DNA of 64,000 nt from a virus (Duplodnaviria > Heunggongvirae > Uroviricota > Caudoviricetes): positions 172,420 through 236,419 of the IMG/VR virus record IMGVR_UViG_3300037418_003161. The stretch is one strand, 5' to 3'. Of this stretch, positions 7,449-61,232 are shown piece after piece. The notes under the pieces are model-generated. The model was not told the origin of the DNA. It did not search any database and saw nothing but the letters and a program-made list of their open reading frames with translations. The position numbers and the translations under genes were made by a program. How positions within the stretch are numbered: position 1 is the first letter of the stretch; every line of letters starts with the position of its first letter.

Positions 7449-7540
7449 CACAACGCTTATTTCCACACCAAATTTCAGTTCCATGAAAGTTGAACTAAAA
7501 AAATAATTTTGATAATTAAAAAAGTTGTTTTATCTTTGTT

Positions 7541-7855
7541 TTGATGACGCAACAAATTACCATACAGAAAGAGTTCAACGGTCAAACTTTGGTAGTCCAT
7601 TGTTTGGCTGATATGCGTACTTTGTCTGTTAGTGGTTTTGGTACAGGCCCACATACAAAAAAGGTTTGTCTTCATATGCTTTGGATAAAGTCTAATGGGG
7701 AGAAACCTTTCTTTTTTAATCACCTTACCCAACAGCAAAAAGGAACTTTTAAGTCAGAACTGATGAATCGGGAGTTCCACTATCAACATGGAAAAACAGG
7801 CCCGTTTGCGGGAAGCAGGGCTGTTATTGTAAAAGAAACCAAATCATTAAGGTAA
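7541..7855 (+). CDS. Hypothetical protein
   Basis: ATG at 7541 immediately follows the conserved promoter motif TTGTTTTATCTTTGTTTTG. Confidence 0.45.
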   Translation: MMTQQITIQKEFNGQTLVVHCLADMRTLSVSGFGTGPHTKKVCLHMLWIKSNGEKPFFFNHLTQQQKGTFKSELMNREFHYQHGKTGPFAGSRAVIVKETKSLR

Positions 7856-7856
7856 T

Positions 7857-8081
7857 ATGGCAAAGAAATACGGAATAGGAGCAACCAATGGTAAGAAAGC
7901 TACCACCTATGTTGCTACAGCCCCGGATGGTACAATTCTAAAAAAGAAAAGCTTTTTCATCCATACGGAAACAGCATTAATTGGTGCATTTCAACATGAA
8001 GGTAAATGGAGGGCATCGGGTGTGACCGAAGAGGTTAGAGATTGGGGCAGTCAAATATTTTTGGAGGCCCAAAAAACTTAA
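7857..8081 (+). CDS. Hypothetical protein
   Basis: 74 aa ORF directly downstream of the previous gene. Confidence 0.4.
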   Translation: MAKKYGIGATNGKKATTYVATAPDGTILKKKSFFIHTETALIGAFQHEGKWRASGVTEEVRDWGSQIFLEAQKT

Positions 8082-8112
8082 TTTATCTTTGTTTTATAAT
8101 ACTTTTAAATCT

Positions 8113-8226
8113 ATGCCAAATTTTAAAATAGAGAATGACGAAATCGGCTGTGGCATCATGATGATATGCTTGGCCATTGCTTTTGCAATCATCATAATTG
8201 CTTGCAAATATGTTGGTTGGATATAA
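8113..8226 (+). CDS. Small hydrophobic peptide, 37 aa (MPNFKIENDEIGCGIMMICLAIAFAIIIIACKYVGWI)
   Basis: Below the ORF-track size cutoff. Preceded by the conserved promoter motif (8085-8105) and followed by a terminator hairpin (8225-8250). Confidence 0.35.
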   Translation: MPNFKIENDEIGCGIMMICLAIAFAIIIIACKYVGWI

Positions 8227-8250
8227 CCCCGGAATTTCCGGGGTTTTTTA
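8225..8250. terminator. Rho-independent terminator, conserved CCCCGGAA/TTCCGGGG hairpin family
   Basis: AACCCCGGAATTTCCGGGGTTTTTT; lies between convergent genes. Confidence 0.6.
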
Positions 8251-8679
8251 TTATCGTTTCCGTTCAAATATGTCAAATTCCCGAAATAAGGTTGGTGTTG
8301 ATTTTATAATCTTATCAGCCAATTCTTTCATTGTATGGGAGAATTCTTCTGCTTTGATATCCATTTGTTGCCGGGTGAACAATGTAACTTCGCAGCTTAA
8401 AAAGGAACGTTTATGAGTAAGGATGCCACTTGACCTCAAGTCCAAATCCACAATGTAATTGTCGTTGAAGTATTGTTTGTTGATGTTGTGGAACGCACAC
8501 ATGCGAACCTCTCTGCGGATTAATGAAATAATGGCGTCCCAATTTTTTTCATCAGTTTTGGGTTCGACCCAACACTGCATTCTCAGATAAACAGATTTTA
8601 GTTGTTTGGTATTGACACTTCCATAACTTAACGCAATATTATCTTGTTTGGGAAGTTTTACATATTTTCCTGATTTCAT
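8251..8679 (-). CDS. Hypothetical protein
   Basis: 142 aa ORF. Confidence 0.45.
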   Translation of the reverse strand: MKSGKYVKLPKQDNIALSYGSVNTKQLKSVYLRMQCWVEPKTDEKNWDAIISLIRREVRMCAFHNINKQYFNDNYIVDLDLRSSGILTHKRSFLSCEVTLFTRQQMDIKAEEFSHTMKELADKIIKSTPTLFREFDIFERKR

Positions 8680-8766
8680 TCGGGTTTTTCATTTTACTTT
8701 TGTTTATTTTTTATAACGGATTAATTATCATAAGAATTATACGAAAAAAAAACCACAATTTCAAGT

Positions 8767-8952
8767 ATGTTGATTATCAATGTTCAAGAGGAAAAAGGTA
8801 TCGATGCTGCACTCAGAACCTATAAAAAGAAAGTGCAAAAGACACGACAAATCCAAGCCCTCCAAGAGCGCAAGGAATTCACAAAACCTTCGGTTAAAAG
8901 ACGAAATGTAATTTTAAAAGCGAAGTACAGTATTTTAAAGGGGCATAATTAA
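8767..8952 (+). CDS. rpsU: Ribosomal protein bS21-like
   Basis: 61 aa, basic. INVQEEKGIDAALRTYKKKVQKTRQIQALQERKEFTKPSVKRR matches the bS21 pattern (ALRRFK...R.R.FY.KPS..RKR). Phage-encoded bS21 is known in Bacteroidetes and pelagic phages. Confidence 0.72.
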   Translation: MLIINVQEEKGIDAALRTYKKKVQKTRQIQALQERKEFTKPSVKRRNVILKAKYSILKGHN

Positions 8953-9951: not shown

Positions 9952-12900
9952 TTATTCGTTTAATAAATCATCAAGTTCGTCAGCAATCTCATTTAGTTTT
10001 TGTCTGCCCTTGTCCAAATCGAATATGAACCCTTCTTTTTCGTTCTTCATATCCAGTAGTTTTCCCAAACGTTGTTCGCTCAAGGGTGCTGCGGGTTGGG
10101 TTTCTTCTTCTTCCGGTGGAGCTTGCTCACCTCCGGTTGCGGGAGGGGCTGCTGCTCCTGTAGGTGGCGCAGCTTCACCACCACCTGTTTCTTCCGGTGG
10201 AGCTTCTTCTGCACCTCCACCCATATCACCACCCAAGTCAGGTAGGCTCATTGAGCCGCCCCCGCCTCCACCACCACTTGCGCCTCCGGCATCGGCTGAA
10301 TCACCACCCGCTGGATTTTCACCACTGGAATAAAGTTGGTTGATTTTATTAAAGATTCCGGTTTTAATGTCTTTGGAGTTGTTGAGTTCTTCTGCAATTC
10401 CACGCTCCACTTTTTGTTGTTGAAGGTCAAGCTTGACTTCTTCATCACTCATACCCAAGAAGTATTTTTTGGCGAATGTGTGGGACACAGGTGCAATGGA
10501 TTGACCATCGCCCACCGCATCTTTATACAGCAGGATTTTCTCTTTCCATTGTTCAATCTTAAGAAGGTCAGATTGTGTGGAAGGATTGGTAAGACCCAAT
10601 GTGAAATTATCCAACTCATCTTCTAATCCAAGAAGATAAAGGTGGATGATAGCAATTTTATTGAGTTCCTGAATCAGAGATTTTTGAATACGATTGATGG
10701 TACGTGCGAAACGTATATCCATAAGCGATAGACCCTTACCTTCACCAACCACTTCTTCGAAACCCAAGAATGCTTTGGGAATACGAAGTGCAGCCAACAT
10801 CTTCTTTTGGATATACTCAATATCTGCGATTTCTCCCAAATTAGAATTAAAAATATATATACCGCATTGAATACCAAAGGTGTGTGCGTTAGAATAGAGT
10901 TCATTACCATCTACGGTAATAGTTCCGGTATCTTGTTTTTCTTCCAGCCATTCTATCGCAATAATCTTGTGATTAAAGAACTTTCTTCGTTGTGAGATTC
11001 CTTGTTCCTTATCGATATAATATCTCCATGCACGAACATTTTTGTAACCCCTACTTTCAGATTCTTTTACTAACCATTCACGATAGTTTCTAAAGCCACG
11101 TTGTTTCAACATCTTAACAACATGGTTATGCGTAAATTCAGAAAGATTGGAAAGTGGACTACTAATTTCACCATTGATTGTTTTAAACAATTTCAAAAAT
11201 TCCGGGGTATTGTTTAGAACATTTAATGTTAAATCTGCACGTCCGGTCTTCTCAAATTCACGAACGTACCATCGATAAATTTCATCGGAGAAAATGAGCG
11301 TTTGGTTTTTCAGAACCTTTTTTCTGAACTCACTATTTTTCCAATTGTTTTTTGTGCGTTCACTGTGTTGTTGTTTTCTATCGTTAGTAAAAGCTTTTGA
11401 AATCTTTTTGCCTTTTGCCTTCAGATTTTCTTCATTTTTACACCATTCCAACATTGGTTGAATGTTTTCAACGGTTGCATATTGTTTCAATCTTTCAAAG
11501 CTTTCATTGAGTTGTTCTTCATTAAGAGAATTAATGTAATTTTTTAAACCTTCGCTTTGTTTTTTACTGATTTCTTGGTGGAAATTGATATCGGATTTAC
11601 GTTTGTTGTGAAATGTTTCTTGTCCCCTTTTTAGTCTTTCATTTACAGCATTTCTAAAATTTTCGTCATTTGCATATTTTTCTGAATAGGCTTGAGAAGC
11701 AATATGTAAATTATCAGCATGATATTTTAAGTGGTCTGAATAACCCATAAAACATAAATTAGTTGGGTTATTATTAAATCGATTTACATCTTTATGGTGT
11801 ATTACACTAAACGTATTCTCCTCATTCTTTTTGTGAATATATTTCTGTACTAATTTGTGTCTGTAAAATTTAGCAACTTCTTTGTGAACCCATAACCATT
11901 TACCTTTCTCGTTATCCCAAACTTGTTTGTAATCCTTGGAATAATTATTTCTCCTATATAAAACTTCGTTTCTAAGATTTAGTGGCATAAGACTTTCACC
12001 AACAACCAAATCTTTTGCTTCTTTCTTTTCACCTAAACGTGTGAGAAACTTATGGTCGGGTGTTGCGGTCACACTTTCACCATTATCCAAAGTAATTTTA
12101 AGAACTTGCGTATTCTTTCTTGTAACCCCGGCCCAAGTAATCGGCAGAGGAATAAACTTACCCGTTTTTGGGTCACATGAGTAAACCCACAGGTTTCTAT
12201 TTCCTTCGTCCCATTCTTTGATAATATCTTTTAATTCCAATGTCCTTCCATCCAATAGGGGAATTTTGGTATCCAAAGCGATACAAGCTCCCGGCAGTGT
12301 TTCAATCGGAGAAGCCTGAGATGGGTCACGAACCGGGATAAAGAAATCTTGGTCAACCGCCATTTGGTTGTAACGAGTATCCACGTTACCGTTGCGTTGG
12401 TCAGCGATTTGGTCACGCTTAAATCTGTTGGCAACACGCTGAACATATTGTTCCACATCCGAATCATCCATATTTCCAACAAAGACCTTAAACACCCTGC
12501 GCTCCGGCGCACGACTTGTCCGGTAAATCAACATCGCATCTTCGGCCAACAAAAGCTGCTTCCATATCCTGCGGCATTTATCCAACATGGACGTGCCATA
12601 GGGAAGTTTGCGGTCATCCCCCAACAGTCGGAAGTGAGCAATCTCCCAAGGTTGGAAGTCCATGTTTTTATCTTTCCAACGGAATTTGACCTGACGTGCC
12701 GCCAAATCATCCTTGTCTTTGATTTCCACTTTCTGCACCATGTTGGCTGTGGAGTTTTTGTAGGCTTCCCCTTCCAGCCGCTCGATTTCCACGTTGGGGA
12801 GTTGGTAGCAACCAACCACCCCCTTTTCGGGGTCTATTTTTAAATATAAGAAATTATCTCCATATTTGCACATGTTCCGACCCCACATCTGTAAATTGGT

Positions 12901-13335
12901 ATTTACATCCAAGACATTGTTAAACAGGTTAGCAAGTGTATTTTTTATACGTTTTGATTCTGAAAAAATTGAAAGAATGTGTCCCTTCTCACTTGGCGTG
13001 GTGGCTTCCTCTGCATAAATGTCCAAAGCAGCAGAAATTTCCGGGGTATACTCCATTGATTCATAATCGAAATATGCCGATAAACGGGTGGTTTCATAAA
13101 CGGTTGATTTGTTATACAACTCATTATCAATCTTCACCCATTTATCCAGAAGGTATTTGGATTGTTGGAGTTCCAACTTTTTCGTGTCGTACTCCTGTTT
13201 GTTATATGTTCTTAATAATTCCTGTGCATTCAGATTGTACGTGTGTTCAGGCTCTTGGGGTTGCTGTATGGAAGCACCACCCCTCCTCAACATCTTGGTT
13301 AGCTTCTGAAGTACGGTTAAATTGTTTTCAGCCAT
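9952..13335 (-). CDS. Portal protein, T4 gp20-like, interrupted by an intein; Gly/Pro/Ala-rich C-terminal low-complexity segment
   Basis: 1127 aa. N-terminal ~350 aa and the post-insertion segment are portal-like by size and synteny. A ~473 aa insertion begins with Cys in ...SPIETLPGA/CIALDTKIPLLDG (Hint block A). Confidence 0.78.
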   Translation of the reverse strand: MAENNLTVLQKLTKMLRRGGASIQQPQEPEHTYNLNAQELLRTYNKQEYDTKKLELQQSKYLLDKWVKIDNELYNKSTVYETTRLSAYFDYESMEYTPEISAALDIYAEEATTPSEKGHILSIFSESKRIKNTLANLFNNVLDVNTNLQMWGRNMCKYGDNFLYLKIDPEKGVVGCYQLPNVEIERLEGEAYKNSTANMVQKVEIKDKDDLAARQVKFRWKDKNMDFQPWEIAHFRLLGDDRKLPYGTSMLDKCRRIWKQLLLAEDAMLIYRTSRAPERRVFKVFVGNMDDSDVEQYVQRVANRFKRDQIADQRNGNVDTRYNQMAVDQDFFIPVRDPSQASPIETLPGACIALDTKIPLLDGRTLELKDIIKEWDEGNRNLWVYSCDPKTGKFIPLPITWAGVTRKNTQVLKITLDNGESVTATPDHKFLTRLGEKKEAKDLVVGESLMPLNLRNEVLYRRNNYSKDYKQVWDNEKGKWLWVHKEVAKFYRHKLVQKYIHKKNEENTFSVIHHKDVNRFNNNPTNLCFMGYSDHLKYHADNLHIASQAYSEKYANDENFRNAVNERLKRGQETFHNKRKSDINFHQEISKKQSEGLKNYINSLNEEQLNESFERLKQYATVENIQPMLEWCKNEENLKAKGKKISKAFTNDRKQQHSERTKNNWKNSEFRKKVLKNQTLIFSDEIYRWYVREFEKTGRADLTLNVLNNTPEFLKLFKTINGEISSPLSNLSEFTHNHVVKMLKQRGFRNYREWLVKESESRGYKNVRAWRYYIDKEQGISQRRKFFNHKIIAIEWLEEKQDTGTITVDGNELYSNAHTFGIQCGIYIFNSNLGEIADIEYIQKKMLAALRIPKAFLGFEEVVGEGKGLSLMDIRFARTINRIQKSLIQELNKIAIIHLYLLGLEDELDNFTLGLTNPSTQSDLLKIEQWKEKILLYKDAVGDGQSIAPVSHTFAKKYFLGMSDEEVKLDLQQQKVERGIAEELNNSKDIKTGIFNKINQLYSSGENPAGGDSADAGGASGGGGGGGSMSLPDLGGDMGGGAEEAPPEETGGGEAAPPTGAAAPPATGGEQAPPEEEETQPAAPLSEQRLGKLLDMKNEKEGFIFDLDKGRQKLNEIADELDDLLNE
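10867..12285 (-). mobile_element. Intein (Hint domain with embedded HNH endonuclease) within the portal gene
   Basis: N-terminal splice junction Cys codon at 12283-12285 (CIALDTKIPLLDGRT). HNH motif VIHHKDVNRFNNNPTNLCFMGYSDHLKYHADN. C-terminal block ITVDGNELYSNAHTFGIQ/CG resembles Hint block G but ends in Gln (10867-10869) followed by Cys, non-canonical. Boundaries approximate. Confidence 0.6.
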
Positions 13336-13382
13336 AATTTTTTAATATCTAATCATAAATACTTCCATGGAAGAAGTAAACC

Positions 13383-13685
13383 CTATGGTGTGGACGAGTC
13401 TTTAATTATGTGTGGTGAGATGGTATTTATCCTTATTTTGAATTTTCGGGCCAAGTATGTTTCTGTTTTTTCATTAACATAACGTTTAATTGTTTTTTCA
13501 ATCCAAACAGCGTTAACTTCTGCCACATGAAAATGGTAAATACAATCAATGTTGATGACCTCTTTTTGGGAAAGTGTAACTTTTGTAAATTCTATACTGC
13601 CACCATTTTCAAAATGTATTTTGTCGCCAGTGAGAAGTTTCGGAATAACCCCTCTTAAAATTGATTCCTTAATTAAATTTTTCAT
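13383..13685 (-). CDS. Hypothetical protein
   Basis: 100 aa ORF between terminase and portal genes. Confidence 0.4.
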   Translation of the reverse strand: MKNLIKESILRGVIPKLLTGDKIHFENGGSIEFTKVTLSQKEVINIDCIYHFHVAEVNAVWIEKTIKRYVNEKTETYLARKFKIRINTISPHIIKDSSTP

Positions 13686-15457
13686 TATCTTTTTGGTTTA
13701 CCGAACAACCAAGCATATTCAGAATACTGCTGTTTGGTGGGTTGTTGGGACTGTTCCATCAGGCTACTTGGTGATAGTTGAAAAGGATTGAAGGAGTTCG
13801 GATTGTGGGGGTGTCCACTTGGTATCCCGGTGGATGGTTTATTTTCATTGACCGTCCATGAATTAATCATGGCTCTAGCGGTGTCATCAACTTTTTGGAG
13901 TTGAGTAAATGCTATATCACCAACATATATTGGCATGGCGAGTGACATGATGCAGTCATCGTGTTGTCCCTTCATGTGGTCGGCCTTACCGTTGATGTAA
14001 ACAAACGTGTTAAATTCGTTTACCGTTCTAATGGAACGAACAACAAAATCATGACGCAATTGTTCTTCCAAGGCTGCAATGATTTGGGTTCGTTTGCTGT
14101 TGAAGTTAATGCCCGGTATCTTTTCATATATCTTGGGGTCGTACTTCCAATTGTTTTGTACCATTCCATCGATATATAGGTTCTTATAACCCAATTCCTG
14201 AAGCTTTCGGGAGGTGGCAATACCCATACCCCCGGTGATATCCACCACAATAAAAGCGTTGTATCGAGAACCCCATTCAAAGGCGATGTAGGCCAGTTCA
14301 TCGGGTGGCATCTTGCCAAGGTATTCCATCACCTGTTTGCGCTCATCGAAATCAATGATGTTGATGGCAGAATAATCTTCAGAGTCACCCCGGCTAACGT
14401 CCACACCCATGATGTATTTGTGTCCGGGGATGGGTTCTTCCCATTGCCAAAGCTGGCCTGAGAGGTGTTTTTTCTTGGGGTCACAAACATGTTTTTCTTT
14501 TACCTTTTCTACCAGTTCGGGGTCAAACACGTTATCACCCGAACCCAAGAAGGCACAGTTAATCTCCTGATTGATTTTTCGTGCATCGTATTTTAATTTT
14601 TTACACATGGCTTCAAACCATGTGGAGTAGGGTTTGTACCCTTGTTGCAGCAAATCAATAAATTTCGCCCGGTCAAATTCTTCAATGGTAATATCCTCAT
14701 CCTTATATTGCTCCCGGTTGAGCATGTAATGAACAATGTCCTCACACTTAATCCACTTGAGGTCTTTGGTAAATCGAGGGTCGGTGTACCAAAACAAGTA
14801 GGATACCTTGAAGTCGTTGATTCCATCAATGGCTTGTTTGTAGACACCATAATAGATGGGGTCAAAACCATTTGGGGTGGAAACCACAATTACCTTACCG
14901 CCAGTTGAAAGTGAGGCCATACACGCCGCCCAAAAGTCATCCCCGGCCTCAATGTAGGCGGCTTCATCAAAAATGAGAATGGTGGGCGTATAGCCCCGCA
15001 GCGCATCCTTGGATGTACCCACGGCTTTTACCTCACAACCATTGGTTAACTTATAGTGAGAAGTAGCATCTTTTTCTTTGGAAAAGTCAACGTCCAACCA
15101 ATCCGGCCATTGGGTTAGGAAGGAACGAATTTTAATTGCAAACTCTGTGGCTGTATCTAACTTGTTGGCGACAATTAGTATTTTCTCAGGTTTTTTCTTG
15201 GTGGCAAAGGCGAGTTTTTTTGCGGCCCAAGCTGCTGTTACTGTAGAGACACCCGCTTGACGGTATTTGATAACAATGTTTTCGTTTGCGGTGTCATAGT
15301 CTTTAATTAGAGTTTCTTGGTCGGGAAATAAAACAAGGGGTACGTATTTGGATTGAGTGTTGTCGTAGGTCTCCAAATAGGTTCTTAGAGCATAAGATGT
15401 ATCTTTAAAGGCTCTTGTATATTCCTTCAAGAACTCTTGTCTTGATTCGAATGCCAT
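13685..15457 (-). CDS. Terminase large subunit, T4 gp17-like
   Basis: 590 aa. [18 protein letters not shown] vs T4 SRQLGKTTVVAIFLAHF (Walker A); [10 protein letters not shown] vs [34 protein letters not shown] vs IIITTTPNGLNHFYDIWTAAVEG; nuclease block [21 protein letters not shown] vs [32 protein letters not shown] vs GYHDDLVMSLV. Confidence 0.93.
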   Translation of the reverse strand: [590 protein letters not shown]

Positions 15458-15465
15458 AACCTATA

Positions 15466-15507
15466 AATATATTTGGAGGATTAAAAAACCTGTTTTATCT
15501 TTGTTTT
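15466..15507 (+). promoter_or_regulatory. Bacteroidetes-type promoter (TTTG -33, TATCTTTG -7) abutting the start codon; example of the conserved motif TTGTTTTATCTTTGTTTTATG
   Basis: TTTGgaggattaaaaaacctgtttTATCTTTGttttATG. The same architecture occurs at 7504-7540, 8063-8105, 23323-23344, 31548-31580, 35030-35067, 35873-35921, 55262-55291 and on the minus strand at 61110-61137. Confidence 0.6.
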
Positions 15508-16344
15508 ATGAAGCTAAACGAATCATATTTAGGGGTCTATTTTGAGACCAACCGACATTTGAAGGATTTCTTTTTGGGTGAACATTTGCATTCCAAACAC
15601 AAATTTGAGGTGGGTATGATGCCGCTATTGGCTAAACTCAACAATGGGTATTACGATAGGCGCATTGATGACCCATGGGAAGCAAGGGTTAGCATTGCCA
15701 ACAGGCTTTGTGAGTCTCCCCGGAATTTAAAACGGTACTTTATTACCAAGACTGTACAGGAAGGGGCAGACCTTATCAAGTTTGACTTGGACAAGGTTGA
15801 CCTTCGTATGTTCAAGGTGCTACCCAACATGCAATGCCTCTACATTCCCAATAAGGATGAGATGTTTCGTTTTGAAAAGAACGACCACCGCATCAATGTG
15901 TTGTATTATCACCGGGAACATTTGGGTTTGATGGACGACATCAAATACGACAGTTATTCCGTGATATTGGAAGACGAAGAAATCATGCTTGGAATGTTAC
16001 CCGGTCAGGATAAGGACGCAGCCGTTAGGTTGTTGAAATTGATTTTGTTTATTGAGGTAGGTGAGATTTCCTTTACCCATTGCCGGGCGCATGGCGGTAA
16101 GGTGGTATTTGGAAAAGGAGGGGATGATAAATTGAAGAACGAATCCGGCGTTGATGTCACAGTAGTCAACAGCAATTGGAATCGCATGGTTATTGTGCAG
16201 GGTGGTTACGGCGTTCGGGGTCACTTCAAAATGATTTGGTGTGGTGAGGGTCGTAAAAAACTGGAACGCAGATGGTGGTCAGCCCATTCAAGAGGCACAC
16301 ACGTCCGGGTTGCAGGAAGGATTAATGAAGAAAAAAAGCATTAA
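15508..16344 (+). CDS. Hypothetical protein
   Basis: 278 aa; ATG directly after the conserved promoter motif (15488-15507). Confidence 0.5.
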   Translation: MKLNESYLGVYFETNRHLKDFFLGEHLHSKHKFEVGMMPLLAKLNNGYYDRRIDDPWEARVSIANRLCESPRNLKRYFITKTVQEGADLIKFDLDKVDLRMFKVLPNMQCLYIPNKDEMFRFEKNDHRINVLYYHREHLGLMDDIKYDSYSVILEDEEIMLGMLPGQDKDAAVRLLKLILFIEVGEISFTHCRAHGGKVVFGKGGDDKLKNESGVDVTVVNSNWNRMVIVQGGYGVRGHFKMIWCGEGRKKLERRWWSAHSRGTHVRVAGRINEEKKH

Positions 16345-50133: not shown

Positions 50134-50160
50134 GATTGAGATGTTTGGTTATCATTCTAC

Positions 50161-51110: not shown

Positions 51111-51111
51111 C

Positions 51112-51852: not shown

Positions 51853-51863
51853 CTTATTATTAT

Positions 51864-51945: not shown

Positions 51946-51950
51946 CAAAT

Positions 51951-52038: not shown

Positions 52039-52085
52039 CGATTGGTTTTTGCACGTTTTAAACTTAATGGAAAAATGTGTTTTAT

Positions 52086-52169: not shown

Positions 52170-52248
52170 CGAAAGTGAACTTAAACAGTCAATCGAAGTT
52201 CTCATGGCCTACAGGGTGCGCTATAGATTGACGAACGAGGTGATGTAG

Positions 52249-52312
52249 CTCCAAAAGCGTAGAGCAGTCGGTTGAAGCCCGATGGTTGTTGGTTCGAGTC
52301 CAATCATCACCA
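52249..52312 (+). tRNA. tRNA-Phe (anticodon GAA)
   Basis: Acceptor GGTGATG/CATCACC, D-arm GCTC/GAGC, anticodon stem GTCGG/CCGAT, loop TTGAAGC, T-arm GTTGG-TTCGAGT-CCAAT. Confidence 0.72.
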
Positions 52313-52350
52313 CTAGTTGACAATATGATTTTTTTTGTGTATCATTTTAT

Positions 52351-52500
52351 ATGAAAAATTCATTATTGATTTTATTAAGTGTGATTATCGCTATCGTTTT
52401 GGTTGTGGTAGTTGTTATATTAAAAATCATGTTCCATTTTTTAGTACCGCTTATTTTAATTGGTGCTATGAGTGTGCTGATTTACTACTTAATAAAATAA
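52351..52500 (+). CDS. Small hydrophobic membrane peptide (49 aa)
   Basis: MKNSLLILLSVIIAIVLVVVVVILKIMFHFLVPLILIGAMSVLIYYLIK; below the ORF-track cutoff. Confidence 0.3.
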   Translation: MKNSLLILLSVIIAIVLVVVVVILKIMFHFLVPLILIGAMSVLIYYLIK

Positions 52501-52620: not shown

Positions 52621-52998
52621 GTGTATCGCATTAATCATTTGTTTGATAATAGAAACCTTCCAATGACGGATATTATTAAATGGGATGAGTCGTTTGAAAG
52701 ACTGAAAAGATTACATGAGTTCTTTTACCCAAACATAAAAGAAGGGTATTGTAATTTTCGTAGTAGTGGTGGGGAAAATTTAGAGGTTTATAATAGTGTC
52801 ACATTGTTTGTGCCGAATAATGTTTCGGTAAGGAAATATATACAACATGTGGCAAAAACATATTTTAATCTTCTTCCGGCTGTTTGCACTCCAAGTCAAG
52901 GAAATATTTGGTGGTTATTTAAAAACATTCGTAACCCAAACCATGAATTAGTAATTGGGAGGGTGACTCATGAAGATTTTGGTCGCAATAAATTTTAA
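52621..52998 (+). CDS. Hypothetical protein
   Basis: 125 aa ORF (start may be the internal ATG at 52665). Confidence 0.35.
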   Translation: MYRINHLFDNRNLPMTDIIKWDESFERLKRLHEFFYPNIKEGYCNFRSSGGENLEVYNSVTLFVPNNVSVRKYIQHVAKTYFNLLPAVCTPSQGNIWWLFKNIRNPNHELVIGRVTHEDFGRNKF

Positions 52999-53002
52999 AA
53001 TT

Positions 53003-53689
53003 ATGAGAAAGAAATTAGTTGTATTAACCGGGGCAGGAATAAGTGCTGAAAGCGGTCTGAAAACCTTCCGGGACTCCGATGGCCTGTGGGAACAATATAA
53101 TGTGGAAGATGTGGCAACTGCAACAGCATGGAGGAAAAACCCCGGATTGGTTTTGGAGTTTTACAATATGCGCAGGAAGGATGCGGCACAAGCCAACCCA
53201 AATGCCGCCCATATTGGTCTTGCAGAATTGGAAAAGGATTTTGATGTAACCATTCTTACAACCAATGTGGATGACCTTCATGAAAGGGCCGGGTCAACGA
53301 ACGTGGTTCATATTCATGGGGAGTTGACCAAAATGAGAAGTGAAAGGGATGATGATAGAACATATTCTTATGTAAAAGATATTCATTTGGGAGACCTTGC
53401 ACCCGATGGGGGGCAACTCAGACCCCACATTGTATGGTTTGAAGAAGCTGTTCCCATGATACCCATGGCAGAATCCATTGCACGACAGGCAGATATTTTT
53501 GTTATCATTGGAACATCCCTTCAGGTATACCCGGCAGCTAATTTGGTTAACCATGTTGGATACGATGTTCCCAAATACATCATAGATAAGAACATTCCAA
53601 TGTTGTCATGGATTGACAACTTAACAAGAATTCAGAAACCCGCAACAGAAGGTGTTGTGGAATTAAAAGAATTATTAAAGGAGGTTTAA
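53003..53689 (+). CDS. Sir2-family NAD-dependent deacylase (sirtuin), lacking the Zn-ribbon cysteines
   Basis: Start MRKKLVVLTGAGISAESGLKTFR (GAGIS motif). QANPNAAHIGLAELEK, TTNVDDLHERAGS (TQNID-type), HGEL (catalytic His). No CxxC pairs in the small-domain region. Confidence 0.85.
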   Translation: MRKKLVVLTGAGISAESGLKTFRDSDGLWEQYNVEDVATATAWRKNPGLVLEFYNMRRKDAAQANPNAAHIGLAELEKDFDVTILTTNVDDLHERAGSTNVVHIHGELTKMRSERDDDRTYSYVKDIHLGDLAPDGGQLRPHIVWFEEAVPMIPMAESIARQADIFVIIGTSLQVYPAANLVNHVGYDVPKYIIDKNIPMLSWIDNLTRIQKPATEGVVELKELLKEV

Positions 53690-53691
53690 TA

Positions 53692-53832
53692 TGACACCCG
53701 AACAAAAAGAACATATAATGGAAGACATACTTAATGAGTTTGAAAGTAAAAAACCAAAATTTGATTGGTTTTTACTTGGGCTTACTATTGCATGTATACT
53801 CGGTTTTTTATATGGTGTCTTTATTGCTTAAT
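53692..53832 (+). CDS. Small membrane peptide (46 aa)
   Basis: MTPEQKEHIMEDILNEFESKKPKFDWFLLGLTIACILGFLYGVFIA; preceded by AAAGGAGG 8 nt upstream, an SD-like sequence otherwise rare in this window. Confidence 0.3.
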
Positions 53833-53956
53833 TGTAGGGCTGAGGGTGGCACTCTCAGGGTAGATGCACAACTACCTGAACAAGTGAGTAGTTTAATCGA
53901 TTGCAAGCGATAAATGAGGGGCTTGTTCTGTGGCGGTTCGAATCCGTCCCCTACAA
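53833..53956 (+). ncRNA. 124-nt tRNA-like RNA gene with four hairpins and an 8-nt anticodon-position loop
   Basis: tRNA-like acceptor TGTAGGG/CCCTACA plus discriminator A. T-arm GGCGG-TTCGAAT-CCGTC. Hairpins CTGAG-GGTGGCACT-CTCAG (D position), GGTAG-ATGCACAA-CTACC (anticodon position, would read GCA or a 4-base GCAC), and a ~50-nt extra arm closed by GAACAAG/CTTGTTC at the variable-arm position. Confidence 0.45.
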
Positions 53957-53973
53957 CTTTTAAATCCATTCCT

Positions 53974-54321
53974 ATGAATACAAATGAAGTAAAAAAGGAT
54001 TTGTATAAATCCAAGGCTATCGCCAAGCTGAGTCATTATGATGGTGATAGTGGTGAATTGGTATATATTGTGGACATTTTTGGAATTCCACATCAATTCC
54101 CGTTAAAGGTTTTTGATGTTGAACCAGTAGTCAAACAGACCGTTATTATACAGCTTGACGAATGGACAACAAAAGAGCAAACCATTGCCATATCATCAGG
54201 TGTGAAAATGGCAGCAGACCTCAAAGGGGCAAAGTTTTCTTCTGAAATAAAAGGAAGCGACCTAAATCGGTGGATTGTTAAGGCAATCAACAACAACGAA
54301 CTTGTGAAATTGGGAATATGA
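53974..54321 (+). CDS. Hypothetical protein
   Basis: ATG 53974 (MNTNEVKKDLYK...) after the tRNA-like gene. Confidence 0.4.
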   Translation: MNTNEVKKDLYKSKAIAKLSHYDGDSGELVYIVDIFGIPHQFPLKVFDVEPVVKQTVIIQLDEWTTKEQTIAISSGVKMAADLKGAKFSSEIKGSDLNRWIVKAINNNELVKLGI

Positions 54322-54554
54322 CAGCAGCCGAATTGATTATCCTTTTGGAACAACTGCCTCCCGACACAAGAATATTCACCAGTGGATATGAAGGGGGATT
54401 CGATGATGCACTCAAACCAGTTAAAATAGAGGAGTTTGCCTTAAACTATTATACCGCATGGTATTATGGTGAACATGAATTGTTAAACGGGGAAGAGGAC
54501 AAAGCGGAGGCGATTAATAGACGATGTGAAATTGTAAAAGGAGTGGTGATATGA
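54318..54554 (+). CDS. Hypothetical protein
   Basis: 78 aa, ATGA-coupled to neighbours. Confidence 0.35.
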   Translation: MTAAELIILLEQLPPDTRIFTSGYEGGFDDALKPVKIEEFALNYYTAWYYGEHELLNGEEDKAEAINRRCEIVKGVVI

Positions 54555-55273
54555 CCTATAAGGCGTATATACAGGCACAAAATAATTTCCCAATCGCAGA
54601 TTGGGCTGTATCAGCTTATTTGGGGTTTCGGGAAAAACAGACAGATATTGTATTCTTTGAAGATATCAAAGACGTACCAACGTCAAGCTGGAATATTGTG
54701 GTGGCTGAAATCATTCCCACCAATCACTACTTGCAGCGATTGGGGATTGAACCCAAACGTGCATTGAATATCCCGGATGAATTGATGAAATACACCGGGC
54801 GAAAAATTGACTATATGACAATGGGGGAGTTTAAGATGGATACCCGGCTTCCCGTTTTTGTAAAACCCAATCGATATTCCAAGGAATTTGTAGCCGGGGT
54901 GATAAGTGAACCACAAAGCCGCAGCTTTTTCTTCAATAATGTTGAAGACGACTGCCCGGTACTGGTATCAGAAGTGGTGGATTTTGTGAGTGAATACCGT
55001 TGTTATGTGATTAACGGTGTATTGAAGGGGATTAAGCATTATTTAGGAGATATCCGCATTTTCCCCGATGTAAAGGTAATTGATGCGGCCATTGCAGATT
55101 ACAAAATCGCTCCGGTAGGATACGCCATCGACTTTGGTGTGACAAGTGATGGCCGGACGCTTCTTGTGGAGTGTAACGATGGATGGTCATTGGGTAATTA
55201 CGGATTGGATAATTTGGTATATACAAACTTATTATGTAGACGGTGGGTAGAACTATTAAAAAATAGAAAATAA
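54551..55273 (+). CDS. ATP-grasp fold protein
   Basis: 240 aa. LPVFVKPNRYSKEF, EYRCYVINGVL, GYAIDFGVTSDGRTLLVECNDGWSLG resemble ATP-grasp ATP-binding and Mg-binding segments. Confidence 0.55.
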   Translation: MTYKAYIQAQNNFPIADWAVSAYLGFREKQTDIVFFEDIKDVPTSSWNIVVAEIIPTNHYLQRLGIEPKRALNIPDELMKYTGRKIDYMTMGEFKMDTRLPVFVKPNRYSKEFVAGVISEPQSRSFFFNNVEDDCPVLVSEVVDFVSEYRCYVINGVLKGIKHYLGDIRIFPDVKVIDAAIADYKIAPVGYAIDFGVTSDGRTLLVECNDGWSLGNYGLDNLVYTNLLCRRWVELLKNRK

Positions 55274-55291
55274 TTGTTTTATCTTTGTTGT

Positions 55292-55495
55292 ATGAATATT
55301 GTTGGAAATATAGTAAAATGCATTTCAAATCCAGATTATGGAGAAGGTCTTTGTACTCTTTATTCTGTGGAACATGGAGCATTTATCTGTTACAACAATA
55401 AAAATATTAGATATCATAAATGCGACCTTACAGACGTTGAGTTTGTAAGAGAAGCAACCGAAAACGATATAAAAATATATGGTACACCTAGATAA
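55292..55495 (+). CDS. Hypothetical small protein
   Basis: ATG 55292 directly after the promoter motif TTGTTTTATCTTTGTTGT. Confidence 0.35.
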   Translation: MNIVGNIVKCISNPDYGEGLCTLYSVEHGAFICYNNKNIRYHKCDLTDVEFVREATENDIKIYGTPR

Positions 55496-56327: not shown

Positions 56328-56362
56328 CTTGACTTTATCGATTTACTTTCTTATAATTCTGC

Positions 56363-56737
56363 ATGATTGAATACATCTTCCAAGGCTTTTTTGCAGGATT
56401 TGGCTTCTGCATGTTTTTTATCTTCTTTTTGATTTTTGTGCTTGTACTTCTAAAAAAGGCCAATAAAAAGGCCGAGCGCACCTATGATGAACACAAACTC
56501 TCTAAGGCGTTTGAAAATTATTCAGGTAAGCTTTATAATGAAGAGCGGTATTCAGAAATCCCGGAGGTAAAATACATCATCCAAGAACTCAAGGAGGGGC
56601 ATATACCCGAAGAAGTATATGGCTACAACATTAAGCGTAAAAACGATATTGCCCTCAAGGAAGGGGAAAATGAAACTCAACTCATTCGCCTCGTTGAACG
56701 TTACATAGTCTTAAACAAAAAAACAGAAAAGAAATGA
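56363..56737 (+). CDS. Membrane protein
   Basis: 124 aa with an N-terminal hydrophobic helix. Confidence 0.4.
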   Translation: MIEYIFQGFFAGFGFCMFFIFFLIFVLVLLKKANKKAERTYDEHKLSKAFENYSGKLYNEERYSEIPEVKYIIQELKEGHIPEEVYGYNIKRKNDIALKEGENETQLIRLVERYIVLNKKTEKK

Positions 56738-57144
56738 AATTCGAGAACGTCAATTTTACTGTTGTCGTATTGGGAGTTATCACCATTTTTGATATTATGT
56801 TTTCAAAAGAAATAGGAGGGTCATTTGGCCTTTGGTTTTTATATGGCCTGTATAAACTTTTAACAACTGATTAAGTATGACGATTTTGGAAGCCAAAGAC
56901 AAGTTGTATTCAGAACTCCGAAGTGTGGACACTAACGTGGTGGGAGCAGGAATTCAGGAAGAGAATGGGGAAGAAGTAATTGCCTTGTATTACGCCACCG
57001 AACCCGATATGGTATTGGCCGACTACGAGGGTTACAGGATAATTTGGGAAGTTACCGGAGAATTCTACGCTTTCTAACAAAAATATCTATATTTATTTTT
57101 TTAAATAGATATTTTTGTTCTAACTTTGTTGTAGAATAGCCGCC

Positions 57145-57582
57145 ATGAAGTCAACGCTTAAAATTGGTATTGTCGGGTCAAGAGATTTCGACAATTATGA
57201 GATGCTTTTAAAAACTATGGATTGGGTAATCGAAACCTTTGGTGAACCTTCCTTGGTAATTTCAGGAGGGTCGGGAAGACATTATCCAGAAAATAGGGTG
57301 GAAAAAACTAAATCAGCAGATATGCTTGCAGAAAGATTTGCTGATGAATGTGGAATTGAAAAGTTGGTTCATGAAGCCGATTGGGGCAAATACAATGCGT
57401 CTGCCGGGCCGATTCGAAACACCAAAATTGTTGCGGATTCAGACATAATTGTGGTGTTTTGGGATACGGATTTTAACAAGAAGCGTTCCGGGTCAAAAGA
57501 TACGGTTCAAAAAGCCCTTGCCAAAAAAATGAAGGTGGTTTCGGTAAATATGTTTAACGGACACATTCAAGTATTTAATTAA
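57145..57582 (+). CDS. SLOG/DUF2493-like (LOG-family Rossmann) protein
   Basis: 145 aa. KIGIVGSRDF...VISGGSGRHYPENRVEKTKSADMLAERFA resembles the I.GSR...SGGA.GAD..A..WA pattern of YpsA/DUF2493 SLOG proteins. Confidence 0.45.
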   Translation: MKSTLKIGIVGSRDFDNYEMLLKTMDWVIETFGEPSLVISGGSGRHYPENRVEKTKSADMLAERFADECGIEKLVHEADWGKYNASAGPIRNTKIVADSDIIVVFWDTDFNKKRSGSKDTVQKALAKKMKVVSVNMFNGHIQVFN

Positions 57583-58159: not shown

Positions 58160-59275
58160 CGACAATATTGTTCATTCTTTTAAAGGGAGAACAATAAACA
58201 AATTGTTACCTATAATTGTTTATCGTAACCTTACCAAAAAAGGTCGGTGGTACTCCATTAAACAAAAAGGTCAGGTGGTGGCACACGCTCAGGCTCTTTG
58301 CATCCGGGATTGTGAATTCATTGTCAACGAAAAAGGTCGGTTGCGGATTATCAAAAGAAAACAAAAAGAAGTTCATGCCTACATAAAAGGCTTATATGCC
58401 ACAAGTGGTATGGGTTCTACAGCAAAGAAAAATGACCTACCAGTACCCATCTTTTATGACCCATATTCTGTGGATTCCTTCATCACGCACAATTTTACAC
58501 CCACACATAAAGTAAAAGCAGCAAGGTTCTGTATTTGCAATCAGGATGGTGTTCGGGCTGCTTACACCGAAAGAAAATGAATATAATTGACCATATCCGT
58601 AAACGGTATTTGGGTAAAAAATTGGGGTATAATAAGTCTTATGTGTTTGTTAGTAAGATTTATACAACCGACCTCAACACACATATCATTTTGGAAATTG
58701 AGCGGGTAAAGGGTCGTATAAAAAAAATATCACAGACCATATGGTTATCTATGGTTCTTACATTGGAAGAAGAAATAACCAATGAAATTCTTACATATTA
58801 TAAAGGACTGAATATTCGATTCGGTTTTGTAATTCAATTCAGCATCAATGACCCGAAGTGAACGCAAAAAACTAAAAATACTTCTCTGGAAAGAATTCTC
58901 TTTTGAAGTTATGAGTGGGCCATATAGTGGATATCGGGGTAAGGCCAAGATTACCAAAATCACCTTCTTTAAAGAATTGAAATTTGATGTCATGGTATGT
59001 GCTATATATGAGGATGTTACCAAACTTAATCTTAGCAAACATATTGCGGAGGAAAAATTTGGATATCGAGGAATGCGCTATAGGTTCAATATGCAGTTTA
59101 GAAACAATTACAAAGTGAATTATAAAATATATTCACTTTTAAGATATATCGATATGCATTATTATTACATCGTTATTGGAAGAATCAAACACGTTGCCGA
59201 ATGGTAGAGATTGGTTTTGTTTTATCTTTTTTTTAAGTTCAACCACATTGGTTTAATATTTGTAATATGTAAAAA

Positions 59276-59485
59276 ATGAAACCAATTGTCTATACTGACA
59301 TCATCAACAAAAACGAAAAACACGCCATAGTAAAAGGCTGCAAGTATAAAGTAAGGGGTTTAAATGAAGCAGTGGACAGTTGGTTTACCCTCTATTATAA
59401 AAGCGAGGAAATGGCACAAAAGGAGCGTTCGAGGATGATGAAAATTGGTGGTTGGAAACACGTCTCCGAGGTGATTCCTCTGTAG
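59276..59485 (+). CDS. Hypothetical small protein
   Basis: ATG after a partial promoter motif (TTGTTTTATCTTTTTTTT). Confidence 0.35.
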   Translation: MKPIVYTDIINKNEKHAIVKGCKYKVRGLNEAVDSWFTLYYKSEEMAQKERSRMMKIGGWKHVSEVIPL

Positions 59486-59743
59486 GTTATGAGAAACCAA
59501 TAAAAGGGTAAGGTACTTGACTTTACCCTTTTTTTTATTTATATTTTTTCATGAAGTTTCTCATCAACCATGATATCCAATGGCAAGTTGGAGCAAGTGA
59601 CTACCAAGAACGAAATGTCAATAGAAGTGTTGAAGCCAATAGTGAAGAAGAGGCTGTTGAAAAATTAAAATTCAATTATCAATCAATCACTTCCAAAGAG
59701 TTTATTGATATTACCATCCATTCCATAATAAAACAAAACAAAT

Positions 59744-60304
59744 ATGGTACTCAGACCGAAATCTAAGAGCTTTCATGCAAAGGTTTACAAATCCACCTAT
59801 GGATGTGACCGACTGCCCAATAATTTGTGTGGGTATTTTTGGGCCAACGTGCTTGCCTTTCTCTTGTTGATTCCTTCTTTCCCCGGCCACATCATCAATA
59901 TGATACGCAGGAATAATGACGTGCAGTCCATTTGGACAGCCATTCATTTCCCTCTCGCACTTCTAATTGGGTCGCTTTTGGTGGATGAAAAAAAGATGAA
60001 GGCCGGAACAACCTCACTATGGACTCTTTATGGGTGGGGAATGCTTTTAATACTGTCTATGGTGGTTGGTATCTTTTTGACTGCCTTGGTTGTTTTTTGG
60101 GTAAATGAAATGCAAGAAAAACGAATGTGGAAAAAATACTACAAACTTCAGAAAGAATACCCGGAAATGCACTCAGGACAAATATGGGAAATGATTGAAG
60201 CCGATAAATACAGAAAATTAGAACGCCGGAAAAAACGCTTCCTGATTATCGAATGGTTCAAAGCCTTTAAGGGAAAATATTGTCCCAAACTGGAATGGGA
60301 TTAA
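59744..60304 (+). CDS. Membrane protein
   Basis: 186 aa, multiple hydrophobic helices; true start may be internal. Confidence 0.35.
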   Translation: MVLRPKSKSFHAKVYKSTYGCDRLPNNLCGYFWANVLAFLLLIPSFPGHIINMIRRNNDVQSIWTAIHFPLALLIGSLLVDEKKMKAGTTSLWTLYGWGMLLILSMVVGIFLTALVVFWVNEMQEKRMWKKYYKLQKEYPEMHSGQIWEMIEADKYRKLERRKKRFLIIEWFKAFKGKYCPKLEWD

Positions 60305-60915
60305 CTGTGTCTGTTTAAAGCCCGAATGATGTTTTCTTCTAAATTCGGGTTTTCTCTCGCTCCCTGTAAACTAACAACCGCAATTGCGCTTTTAGAGGGG
60401 TCTGTTGCAATTTTGTACCGATTGACACTAAACATACTTCGAGCGATAAGTTCATAAAGTTTGAACCGCTTGGTGTTATTCACATCTACTTTTTGAAAGG
60501 TAGGGTCGTTGGGGTCTTTTTTTATTGTACCAGTTTGGGGGTCGATATCCGGCGCACCAAAGAATATGAATGAAAAATTGGGGTTCTCATTTGCTATGGT
60601 GAGCATCTGATGAAAAACGGTATTTAATACTTTTAATCTTTCTTTATCATTGGTGAGATAGGCATATTTATTCCCCCCGAATTTTTGATTACTTTTAAAA
60701 TTATGGGGAAGTCGGGCATAAAAAGAAACCGCTATGATATCGTCAAAAATCGCTTCAAACTCAGAGAAGTAACGGTAGCTGGCGGTTTGAAAAGCGTACT
60801 GTTTAAAGAGGTTGAAATTGTTGGTCTGACGAGACGGTAAGCGGAAGTGGGGATTATTGTAATTATCAGGGTCTAAACTATCAAACACTTCCTGAAGTAA
60901 TGGGCTTATTTCCAA
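60301..60915 (-). CDS. Hypothetical protein
   Basis: 204 aa ORF. Confidence 0.45.
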   Translation of the reverse strand: MEISPLLQEVFDSLDPDNYNNPHFRLPSRQTNNFNLFKQYAFQTASYRYFSEFEAIFDDIIAVSFYARLPHNFKSNQKFGGNKYAYLTNDKERLKVLNTVFHQMLTIANENPNFSFIFFGAPDIDPQTGTIKKDPNDPTFQKVDVNNTKRFKLYELIARSMFSVNRYKIATDPSKSAIAVVSLQGARENPNLEENIIRALNRHS

Positions 60916-61109
60916 AATTTTTCAACGAATTTCTTGCGGTTATCATCACTTTTAAAGAATTTAAGTGAATCTTCGGTCAAATAATCTTGGGGTTTTCTAA
61001 AACGAACGTAATCAGGAAGGTCGGCTTCAATTTCATCCCTTGTTAAAGTCACCAAATTCAACCCCAACTTGTTTTCTTCTACTTTGATATTAAAATTGAT
61101 TGTGTTCAT
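60906..61109 (-). CDS. Hypothetical small protein
   Basis: ATG 61109 (MNTINFNIKVEE...) preceded by GGGAGG 7 nt upstream and by the promoter motif (minus strand, 61117-61137). Confidence 0.4.
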   Translation of the reverse strand: MNTINFNIKVEENKLGLNLVTLTRDEIEADLPDYVRFRKPQDYLTEDSLKFFKSDDNRKKFVEKFWK

Positions 61110-61232
61110 GATTACCTCCCTTTGTTTGTAAAACAAAGATAAAACAAAAAAATAAACCTACAAAATATTTTTTTATAAATATCGTTTTAAAATAGAAAAA
61201 AATTGTTTTAATTTTGTTTTAAAATAATTGTT

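Follow-up and report, generated by a model that had tools for sequence, protein, structure and literature searches.

Promoters of the Bacteroidota combine a −33 TTTG element with a −7 TAnnTTTG element (PMC7366714; PMC6847099). In Flavobacterium johnsoniae the −7 element reads TAHHTTTG and runs from T−12 to G−5, the −33 element is weak genome-wide, and 4 or 5 nucleotides (nt) separate the −7 box from the transcription start (Baez et al., PMC6847099); bacteria of this phylum also initiate translation without Shine-Dalgarno pairing (PMC6847099). For phages that encode bS21, hosts have been predicted from a clustered regularly interspaced short palindromic repeats (CRISPR) spacer in a Flavobacterium genome, gene-content taxonomy and bS21 similarity, in a paper that does not mention promoters, motifs, untranslated regions (UTRs) or leaderless mRNAs (Chen et al. 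2022, PMC9723584). The DNA analysed here, a 64,000-nt stretch of a Caudoviricetes virus (positions 172,420 to 236,419 of IMG/VR record IMGVR_UViG_3300037418_003161; hereafter the window), encodes bS21 and carries 17 promoter-like sites of the Bacteroidota type, seven of which are fused to the ATG of the gene that they face. A Bacteroidota host's primary sigma factor (sigma-ABfr type) probably recognises these promoters, and the mRNAs made from the seven fused copies would be leaderless.

A site was counted wherever an intergenic TAnnTTTG octamer points toward a gene, on a rough gene map of 93 open reading frames (ORFs) from which tRNA-overlapping ORFs were removed and which leaves 9.1% of the window intergenic. 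All 17 are co-directional with a gene 4-117 nt downstream, and their overall grammar is TT(T/G)G, 19-20 nt, TTGTTT-TATCTTTG-TTTT-A. In the profile aligned on the octamer, T occupies −35 in 16/17 sites and −34 in 13/17, position −33 is T or G, and G stands at −32 in about half of the sites; an A-rich tract (−25 to −20), TTGTTT (−18 to −13), TATCTTTG (−12 to −5, with T, A, T, T, T and G invariant and C at −9 in 13/17) and TTTT (−4 to −1) follow. The fifth position after the box is A in 13/17 sites, leadered promoters included. TAnnTTTG is found in 17/17 sites and TAHHTTTG in 15/17, the exceptions being TATGTTTG at 27519 and TAGCTTTG at 34258. An exact TTTG with a 19-20-nt spacer precedes seven boxes (7531, 8084, 15496, 29359, 35056, 35905 and 61141 on the minus strand), where the initial annotation of this sequence had placed it 20-21 nt upstream of six genes, and TTG alone is found at three more.

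The 21-mer TTGTTTTATCTTTGTTTTATG occurs 11 times with up to three mismatches against 0.02 expected, in line with the near-identical motif that the initial annotation had described, and the sites span 7504-61216. Measured against dinucleotide-preserving shuffles of the window, TATCTTTG has 12 copies where 3.3 are expected, a count reached in 0/100 shuffles, and 9 of the 12 are intergenic despite the small intergenic fraction. TANNTTTGNNNNATG is present in eight copies (1.5 expected), five of them at intergenic gene starts, and an unbiased 7-mer count in the 60 nt upstream of all genes returned ATCTTTG and TTTATCT as enriched 9-10 fold. Chance AT-rich similarity as the source of the motif is excluded by the shuffles. 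The association with genes that had been claimed also holds, as every one of the 17 sites points into its gene; two TATCTTTG copies (482-489 and 20048-20055, both plus strand) lie antisense inside genes. The second of these is kept with its flanks in a relative (L183, 18374, minus strand), which might be due to constraint on the coding sequence of the opposite strand or to an antisense promoter.

The seven sites that abut an ATG, all candidates for leaderless transcription, are as follows (aa, amino acids).

7504-7546, plus strand: leaderless-type promoter; TAATTTTG at 7504-7511 holding TTTG (7508-7511), 19-nt spacer, TATCTTTG at 7531-7538, gap TTTTG, ATG at 7544, product 103 aa.
15468-15510, plus strand: leaderless-type promoter; TATATTTG at 15468-15475 holding TTTG, 20-nt spacer, TATCTTTG at 15496-15503, gap TTTT, ATG at 15508, product 278 aa.
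23308-23347, plus strand: leaderless-type promoter; TTG at 23309, TATCTTTG at 23332-23339, gap TTTTT, ATG at 23345, product 88 aa.
27505-27543, minus strand: leaderless-type promoter; TTGA at 27542-27539, TATGTTTG at 27519-27512, gap TTGT, ATG at 27507, 329-aa peptidase-like protein.
31545-31583, plus strand: leaderless-type promoter directly after a tRNA-like 3' end; no −33 TTTG, TATCTTTG at 31569-31576, gap TTCC, ATG at 31581, product 119 aa.
35032-35070, plus strand: leaderless-type promoter after a hairpin (35005-35030); TTTG at 35033-35036, 19-nt spacer, TATCTTTG at 35056-35063, gap TTTT, ATG at 35068, product 149 aa.
55256-55294, plus strand: leaderless-type promoter; no −33 TTTG, TATCTTTG at 55280-55287, gap TTGT, ATG at 55292, product 67 aa.

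The other ten sites stand further from their genes.

8056-8115, plus strand: leadered promoter; TATTTTTG at 8056-8063 holding TTTG, 20-nt spacer, TATCTTTG at 8084-8091, 21-nt gap, ATG at 8113.
8671-8769, plus strand: weaker promoter-like site; TACTTTTG at 8695-8702, 64 nt before the bS21 ATG at 8767.
24051-24202, plus strand: long-leader promoter; TAACTTTG at 24075-24082, 117 nt before the ATG at 24200 of a ClpB-like AAA+ gene, with TTGACT-N17-TATTGT at 24154 between box and ATG.
29335-29391, plus strand: leadered promoter; TTTG at 29336-29339, 19-nt spacer, TATCTTTG at 29359-29366, 22-nt gap, ATG at 29389, product 155 aa with weak helix-turn-helix matches.
34234-34292, plus strand: leadered promoter; TAGCTTTG at 34258-34265, 24-nt gap, ATG at 34290, product 238 aa; back to back with TTGACT-N17-TACAAT facing the minus-strand gene that starts at 34215.
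35880-35933, plus strand: leadered promoter; TTTG at 35881-35884, 20-nt spacer, TATCTTTG at 35905-35912, 18-nt gap, ATG at 35931, product 96 aa.
50814-50865, plus strand: lower-confidence hybrid site; TTGACA at 50815, TATATTTG at 50838-50845, 31-aa ORF from 50863. Alternatively, the tRNA array at 51029-52313 may be what it drives.
57097-57147, plus strand: leadered promoter; TAACTTTG at 57121-57128, 16-nt gap, ATG at 57145, product 145 aa, SLOG/YspA-like.
61107-61165, minus strand: leadered promoter; TTTG at 61164-61161, 19-nt spacer, TATCTTTG at 61141-61134, 24-nt gap with a rare GGGAGG, ATG at 61109, product 67 aa.
61185-61235, plus strand: leadered promoter; TAATTTTG at 61209-61216, 16-nt gap, ATG at 61233, product 111 aa; divergent from the minus-strand promoter at 61141.

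Box and ATG are separated by exactly 4 nt at five genes (boxes 15496, 27519 on the minus strand, 31569, 35056 and 55280) and by 5 nt at two (boxes 7531 and 23332), so that 7/17 host-type promoters (41%) are fused to a start codon. The initial annotation had at least nine genes with a 4-nt gap; the abutting design is real, but the count is seven. The remaining genes start 16-117 nt after the box, with gaps of 16-24 nt in seven, 64 nt for bS21 and 117 nt for the ClpB-like gene, the tenth being the low-confidence box at 50838. Since the published box-to-start distance of 4-5 nt coincides with these gaps, the A of the ATG is predicted to be +1 for the seven genes, and their mRNAs are predicted to be leaderless. 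All seven abutting start codons are ATG, and for six of these genes the nearest in-frame candidate further on (ATG, GTG or TTG) is 15-25 codons away. The ATG is not part of the promoter: near-identical copies at 8084, 24075, 35905, 61141 (minus strand) and 61209 read TTTTATA, TTTTACA or TTTTAAA after the box, and leadered promoters thus have A, but not TG, at +1. For this reason the possibility that ATG belongs to the promoter consensus was rejected.

Gene callers extend these genes into the promoter. As had been suspected from a recurrent MFYLCF peptide, ORF 35050 (GTG) gives VFYLCF-M and ORF 55274 (TTG) gives LFYLCC-M, and the JGI gene call in a relative (L100) starts seven codons upstream of the ATG, inside the motif, the same artefact.

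We compiled the distances from TAHHTTTG to downstream ATGs that open ORFs of at least 40 aa in the window and five close relatives used for promoter comparison (L100, L102, L183, L184 and L185), whose major capsid proteins are 86-87% identical and whose neighbouring 511-aa proteins are 39-46% identical. The pooled histogram holds 17 ATGs at 4 nt, which are not all independent and represent about ten promoter families, together with 2 at 5 nt, 4 at 6 nt, 5 at 17 nt and 0-3 at nearly every other distance, with a second, broad mode at 16-22 nt. This pile-up at exactly 4 nt would be difficult to account for in the absence of positional constraint if the promoters are real and host-read but the adjoining ATG is incidental, with transcription starting elsewhere (from a tandem box, by read-through or a few nt off) or translation at a downstream codon. 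We regard this alternative as unlikely. It also sits poorly with the leadered promoters, which show A but not ATG at the same position, and with the T-rich TTTGTTTT-ATG context of the fused genes, which differs from the A-rich upstream context of other window genes.

Orthologous comparisons provide what we consider the strongest evidence for the leaderless prediction. In the promoter of the 329-aa gene, TTGTTTTAT(C/G)TTTG and the 4-nt gap are kept in four genomes while the flanks diverge, and the gap bases change from TTGT in the window to GTCT, TCGC and TCGT in the three orthologous promoters; gap length is thus retained while gap sequence is not, which is again difficult to reconcile with an incidental ATG. 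The ortholog of the 278-aa gene (L102, minus strand, 500) keeps the box, the 4-nt gap and the N-terminus MKLNES, an example of coding similarity that begins at the ATG rather than at a downstream codon. Box, 4 nt and ATG directly follow the end of a tRNA cluster in four genomes (the window, L183, L184 and L185, with a TATCTTTG box), and leadered promoters stay leadered in orthologs (22 versus 18-19 nt for the gene at 29389, and 24 versus 16-17 nt for another). The retained 4-nt gap with differing gap bases and the histogram spike indicate that selection acts on the distance between promoter and start codon. Eighteen other IMG/VR contigs contain the exact 18-mer TTTTATCTTTGTTTTATG, which in 12 of them opens an ORF of at least 119 aa, in many cases immediately behind a terminator hairpin; this phage is thus not alone in having the design.

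Several observations weigh against leaderless transcription from host-read promoters. Complete TAnnTTTG octamers at 7504-7511, 8056-8063 and 15468-15475, each ending in the −33 TTTG of a main box that lies 27-28 nt further downstream, may be tandem promoters that yield an extra leadered transcript. An exact −33 TTTG precedes only three of the seven ATG-abutting genes, in which respect the initial annotation overstated its occurrence, and no −33 element can be recognised ahead of boxes 31569 and 55280. In gene 31581, codon 8 is a further in-frame ATG. The counterpart of the 7544 gene stands 7 nt from its box in L100 and opens with GTG or TTG in L102, and one ortholog group switches between 4-nt and 6-nt gaps. 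The transcription starts are extrapolated from host studies, and those of F. johnsoniae were themselves predicted from RNA-seq. Leaderless mRNAs are rare in studied Bacteroidota: 5' UTRs shorter than 10 nt make up 3.7% in Bacteroides thetaiotaomicron, and leaderless mRNAs 5.5% in Flavobacterium psychrophilum. In the first 50 kb of Flavobacterium phage immuto no box has an ATG 4-5 nt downstream, so the arrangement is no general trait of T4-like Bacteroidota phages. Conservation beyond the host consensus (TTGTTT and TTTT) could reflect an additional phage factor. The tandem boxes, the orthologs with 6-7-nt gaps or GTG/TTG codons, the codon-8 ATG and the rarity of leaderless mRNAs in the phylum are the points that favour transcription or translation starting elsewhere. 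The ATG-fused leaderless design, as the initial annotation had proposed, is nevertheless plausible at the sequence level and conserved in relatives, given the published 4-5-nt distance, the A in 13/17 sites and the 4-nt gap kept in orthologs.

The repeats might also be viewed as recombination or mobility modules, that is, cassettes of promoter and hairpin flanking shuffled small genes, or as chance similarity in AT-rich DNA. T4-type phages carry promoter-early stem-loop modules, an analogue of such shuffling cassettes. Terminator hairpins directly precede some sites (e.g. 35005-35030), and motif-bearing small genes vary from one relative to the next: L183-L185 lack the 88-aa gene (23345) between their HSP20 and KTSC genes, and in L102 an additional gene of 53 aa separates the terminase gene from the counterpart of the 278-aa gene. 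Chance is contradicted by the shuffles, and recombination alone does not explain co-orientation, the fixed distance to ATG or the match to a known promoter. A modular arrangement would be compatible with promoter function and not an alternative to it, and we consider it highly improbable as the main explanation of the repeats.

All six positions that are invariant in host promoters (T−12, A−11, T−8, T−7, T−6 and G−5; PMC6847099) are invariant in the phage sites, which, being intergenic and co-directional, conform to the promoter type that the initial annotation had named. A phyletic scan with TTTG-N19/20-TATCTTTGTTTTATG over one genome per GTDB species matched at least 120 stretches, of which 80 were listed with titles; among those listed, 51 are from Bacteroidota, 4 from Chlorobiota or Ignavibacteriota, 20 from other phyla and 5 unnamed. 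About 30 of the listed Bacteroidota matches are one Chryseobacterium locus, a 597-aa gene with this arrangement in about 30 species of the genus, so that independent loci number about 19; at 16 of these listed loci the ATG begins an ORF of 72-706 aa. Among the listed matches from other phyla, the ORFs are mostly shorter than 35 aa or the match falls within conserved coding sequence. The long ORFs at the Bacteroidota loci argue that the composite motif with an abutting ATG truly marks gene starts in chromosomes of this phylum. Of the 93 window genes, 4 have a Shine-Dalgarno core upstream, compared with 7% of random 14-nt windows of the same sequence, and the nearest cultured terminase homologue is that of a Flavobacterium phage, at only 28% identity. 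The distribution of the composite motif, the scarcity of Shine-Dalgarno sequences, the gene order shared with bS21 phages and the terminase relative together support a Bacteroidota host, as first suggested from the promoters; because this agrees with the published clade-level prediction, the host assignment is not new. The four Shine-Dalgarno-like starts are at 36218, 52970, 54551 and 61109 (minus strand), with AAGGGAGGTAATC-ATG at 61109 and GGGAGGGTGACTC-ATG before the SIR2 gene as examples; they stand out in a genome that avoids these sequences elsewhere and has a bS21 gene of its own.

A phage-encoded or phage-modified factor (a sigma factor of its own or an appropriator) might read the motif instead, in which case the sites would mark a temporal class of the phage and not report on the host. 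The phage consensus exceeds the host motif, with TTGTTT at −18 to −13, C at −9 in 13/17 and TTTT at −4 to −1, and two other promoter-like classes (below) imply that transcription must be reprogrammed to some extent. In published metatranscriptomes of related phages, expression of bS21 accompanies that of late structural genes (PMC9723584), and here bS21 lies behind a box of the same class. Such a factor seems improbable to us, given that every host-invariant position is invariant here, that the same composite with ATG heads ordinary chromosomal genes in many Bacteroidota, and that a Pfam search of 40 window proteins, from 64 kb of about 236 kb, revealed no sigma-like protein.

Two further promoter-like classes, absent from the initial annotation, also abut start codons. 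The second class, TATTTATA, or TATTTAT(A), is often followed by GG and lies 3-4 nt before the ATG of several genes, namely the protease (6942), the terminase (15457) and the genes starting at 50112, 33560, 29081 and 23167, and 12-23 nt before other structural genes. The third class, TTGACW-N17-TAnnnT-N5-ATG, has seven copies against 0.03 expected, and an eighth copy with a 6-nt gap at 34215 (minus strand).

6947-6954, 15462-15469, 50116-50123, 33558-33565 and 29086-29093, minus strand: TATTTAT(A) copies from the k-mer analysis.
23171-23178, 4409-4416, 22168-22175 and 13354-13361, minus strand: further TATTTAT(A) copies from the k-mer analysis.
1056-1092 and 34215-34250, minus strand: third-class sites from the motif scan.
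37306-37342, 37977-38013, 50127-50163, 52317-52353, 56329-56365 and 59517-59553: third-class sites from the motif scan.

Pooled over the window and the five relatives, TATTTAT(A) precedes ATG by 3 nt in 12 cases and by 4 nt in 7. Terminase relatives from IMG/VR (L001-L080, the best 80 retrieved) are 61-64% identical and have another gene upstream of the terminase, so that they are unusable for orthologous promoter comparison but informative for TATTTATA: in distinct contexts of these 80 neighbourhoods the motif stands at 3 nt in 25 cases and at 4 nt in 40, and it lies 3-4 nt before the terminase ATG itself in 23/80. That TATTTATA is a T4-type TATAAATA box on the other strand was rejected on account of the co-directional intergenic sites at 4416, 22175 and 13361 and of the terminator-box-ATG order in the terminase relatives. 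As a candidate late promoter, TATTTATA would likewise produce mRNAs that lack a leader.

The third class resembles a canonical sigma-70 promoter: TTGAC(T/A), 17 nt, TAnnnT, 5 nt, ATG. Several of its copies come directly after a terminator hairpin or tRNA, and relatives keep a distance of 28-29 nt. This grammar is not expected for the Bacteroidota primary sigma factor, which makes a phage-encoded or phage-modified factor possible for this class. That three unrelated motifs end 3-5 nt before ATG suggests that what is constrained is where transcription begins with respect to the start codon rather than a translation signal upstream. In the papers searched, no description was found of the ATG-fused design, its conservation or its recurrence in two more motif classes.

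With the host primary sigma factor (sigma-ABfr type) as the reader of about 17 promoters, the proposed mechanism would run as follows. Each promoter would head a short transcription unit, mostly encoding small proteins of unknown function, other units encoding the ClpB-like chaperone, the peptidase-like protein and the phage bS21. For seven of the units, transcription would initiate at the A of the ATG, so that the transcript begins with AUG and has no 5' UTR, and the ribosome would bind the 5'-terminal AUG directly; at the seven leadered promoters, gaps of 16-24 nt predict leaders of about 12-20 nt. The motif, its statistics, gene association, spacing, conservation and phyletic distribution are direct observations, from which we infer the polymerase that reads it, the precise point where transcription starts, the leaderless mode of translation and when the genes are expressed.

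Counting TAnnTTTG with 4-5 nt, TATTTATA with 3-4 nt and TTGACT-N17-TAnnnT with 5 nt before ATG, such arrangements would cover about one fifth of the window genes. It is conceivable, as a speculative extension, that leaderless initiation is a programmed genome-wide strategy of this clade of jumbo Bacteroidota phages, possibly tied to the phage bS21. In Bacteroidota ribosomes bS21 adjoins the sequestered anti-Shine-Dalgarno sequence. The phage protein could shift the ribosome's preference between leadered and leaderless mRNAs during infection. With about 40% of its host-type promoters fused to ATG, two more classes and a bS21, the phage offers a testable system for start-site selection and for the role of phage bS21. 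For annotation, the motif supplies a rule for correcting start codons in this phage group, and the host that it predicts agrees with the published prediction for bS21 phages.

The window codes for a Gp23-type major capsid protein, a T4-type portal, an S77 prohead protease and a large terminase.

1195-2922, minus strand: Gp23 major capsid protein (profile match).
6235-6942, minus strand: Peptidase_S77 prohead protease (profile match).
8767-8952, plus strand: bS21 (PF01165), 61 aa, Pfam 43 bits against a cut-off of 27, on the strand opposite the surrounding structural genes.
9952-13335, minus strand: Portal_T4, 1127 aa, with an intein splicing domain and an HNH endonuclease match inside.
13685-15457, minus strand: large terminase, divergent from the 278-aa gene at 15508.

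Close relatives have a portal of 655-656 aa as compared with 1127 aa in the window. A capsid protein identical to that of the window is on record for a JGI contig of 236,419 bp, and relatives with 83-87% capsid identity are contigs of 216-390 kb. A megablast of 24 kb of the window against a cultured-phage collection gave no match, an exact-sequence look-up of the terminase returned no record, and IMG/VR scans found no relatives of the 278-aa gene (15508) or the 329-aa gene (27507). Matches to the ClpB-like protein in a metagenome scan reach at most 59% identity and are of unclear origin, and their neighbourhoods lack the 4-nt spike. At the syntenic bS21 position L102 has TATCTTTG 45 nt before a 61-aa ORF, a presumed bS21 ortholog judging only by its size and position. 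Upstream of bS21, the region 8113-8250 (plus strand) forms a mini transcription unit composed of the promoter at 8084, a 37-aa hydrophobic ORF, MPNFKIENDEIGCGIMMICLAIAFAIIIIACKYVGWI (8113-8226), and a GC-rich hairpin (8228-8250), a possible bidirectional terminator.

At least 18 tRNA genes are present in the window. Around 31279-31556 (plus strand) the tRNA finders disagree: Rfam reports a tRNA at 31279-31357 that ARAGORN misses and a sub-threshold tRNA at 31445-31523 (28.5 bits versus a cut-off of 29), and T-arm-like stretches at 31376-31390 and 31537-31552 end shortly before the promoter at 31569. A tRNA-Pro at 52086-52170 is reported by ARAGORN only. A dense auxiliary gene set lies at 22898-26227, 38208-48857, 52970-55273 and 62265-63398. 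It comprises the ClpB-like double AAA+ protein beside a 130-aa ORF (23666-24058, minus strand) and an 89-aa ORF (22898-23167, minus strand), the latter two syntenic, by position alone, with the HSP20 and KTSC genes of relatives; SPFH, NADAR and OmpA-domain proteins; an ABC transporter permease and ATPase; a 373-aa short adenylosuccinate-synthetase homologue (PurA-like or possibly PurZ-like); and SIR2, an R2K ATP-grasp protein and an IMPDH/GMP-reductase-like protein.

The phage sites are similar to sigma-ABfr promoters of Bacteroidota with respect to the −7 octamer, the TTTG (7/17 sites) or TTG alone (three more) 19-20 nt upstream, the A-rich tract near −20 and the purine 5 nt after the box, where F. 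johnsoniae starts map (PMC6847099), and the identical motif with ATG occurs at chromosomal Bacteroidota genes. They differ from host promoters in being far more uniform (TATCTTTG in 11/17 sites), in the extra conserved TTGTTT upstream and TTTT downstream, and in that 41% are ATG-fused, compared with 3.7-13% short or absent leaders in hosts, the upper value being that of F. johnsoniae, where about 13% of transcripts have a leader of at most 10 nt. The lambda cI transcript from pRM is an example of a leaderless phage mRNA. As at pRM, the promoters here are set so that the start would fall on the A of AUG, in this case as predicted from sequence alone; unlike cI, the design is repeated across several promoter-like classes and not confined to one regulatory gene, and its setting is a phylum without Shine-Dalgarno initiation in which leaderless genes are reported to be rare. 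Among jumbo phages with mapped starts, no leaderless transcript was detected in phiKZ, and the 5' UTRs of AR9 are 26-491 nt long.

The window also resembles the bS21 phages, for which five clades have been published (Chen et al. 2022, PMC9723584), in having bS21 on the opposite strand inside a terminase/portal/protease/Gp23 block, a large genome (a 236-kb contig) and a predicted Bacteroidetes host. T4 provides a further parallel, in the structural genes, in the presence of three distinct promoter-like motifs of which one is host-type, and in that TATTTATA, found before structural genes, is the reverse complement of the T4 late box TATAAATA. In contrast to T4, however, the host-type class follows Bacteroidota grammar and not that of sigma-70, and the late-like box is read in the opposite sense.

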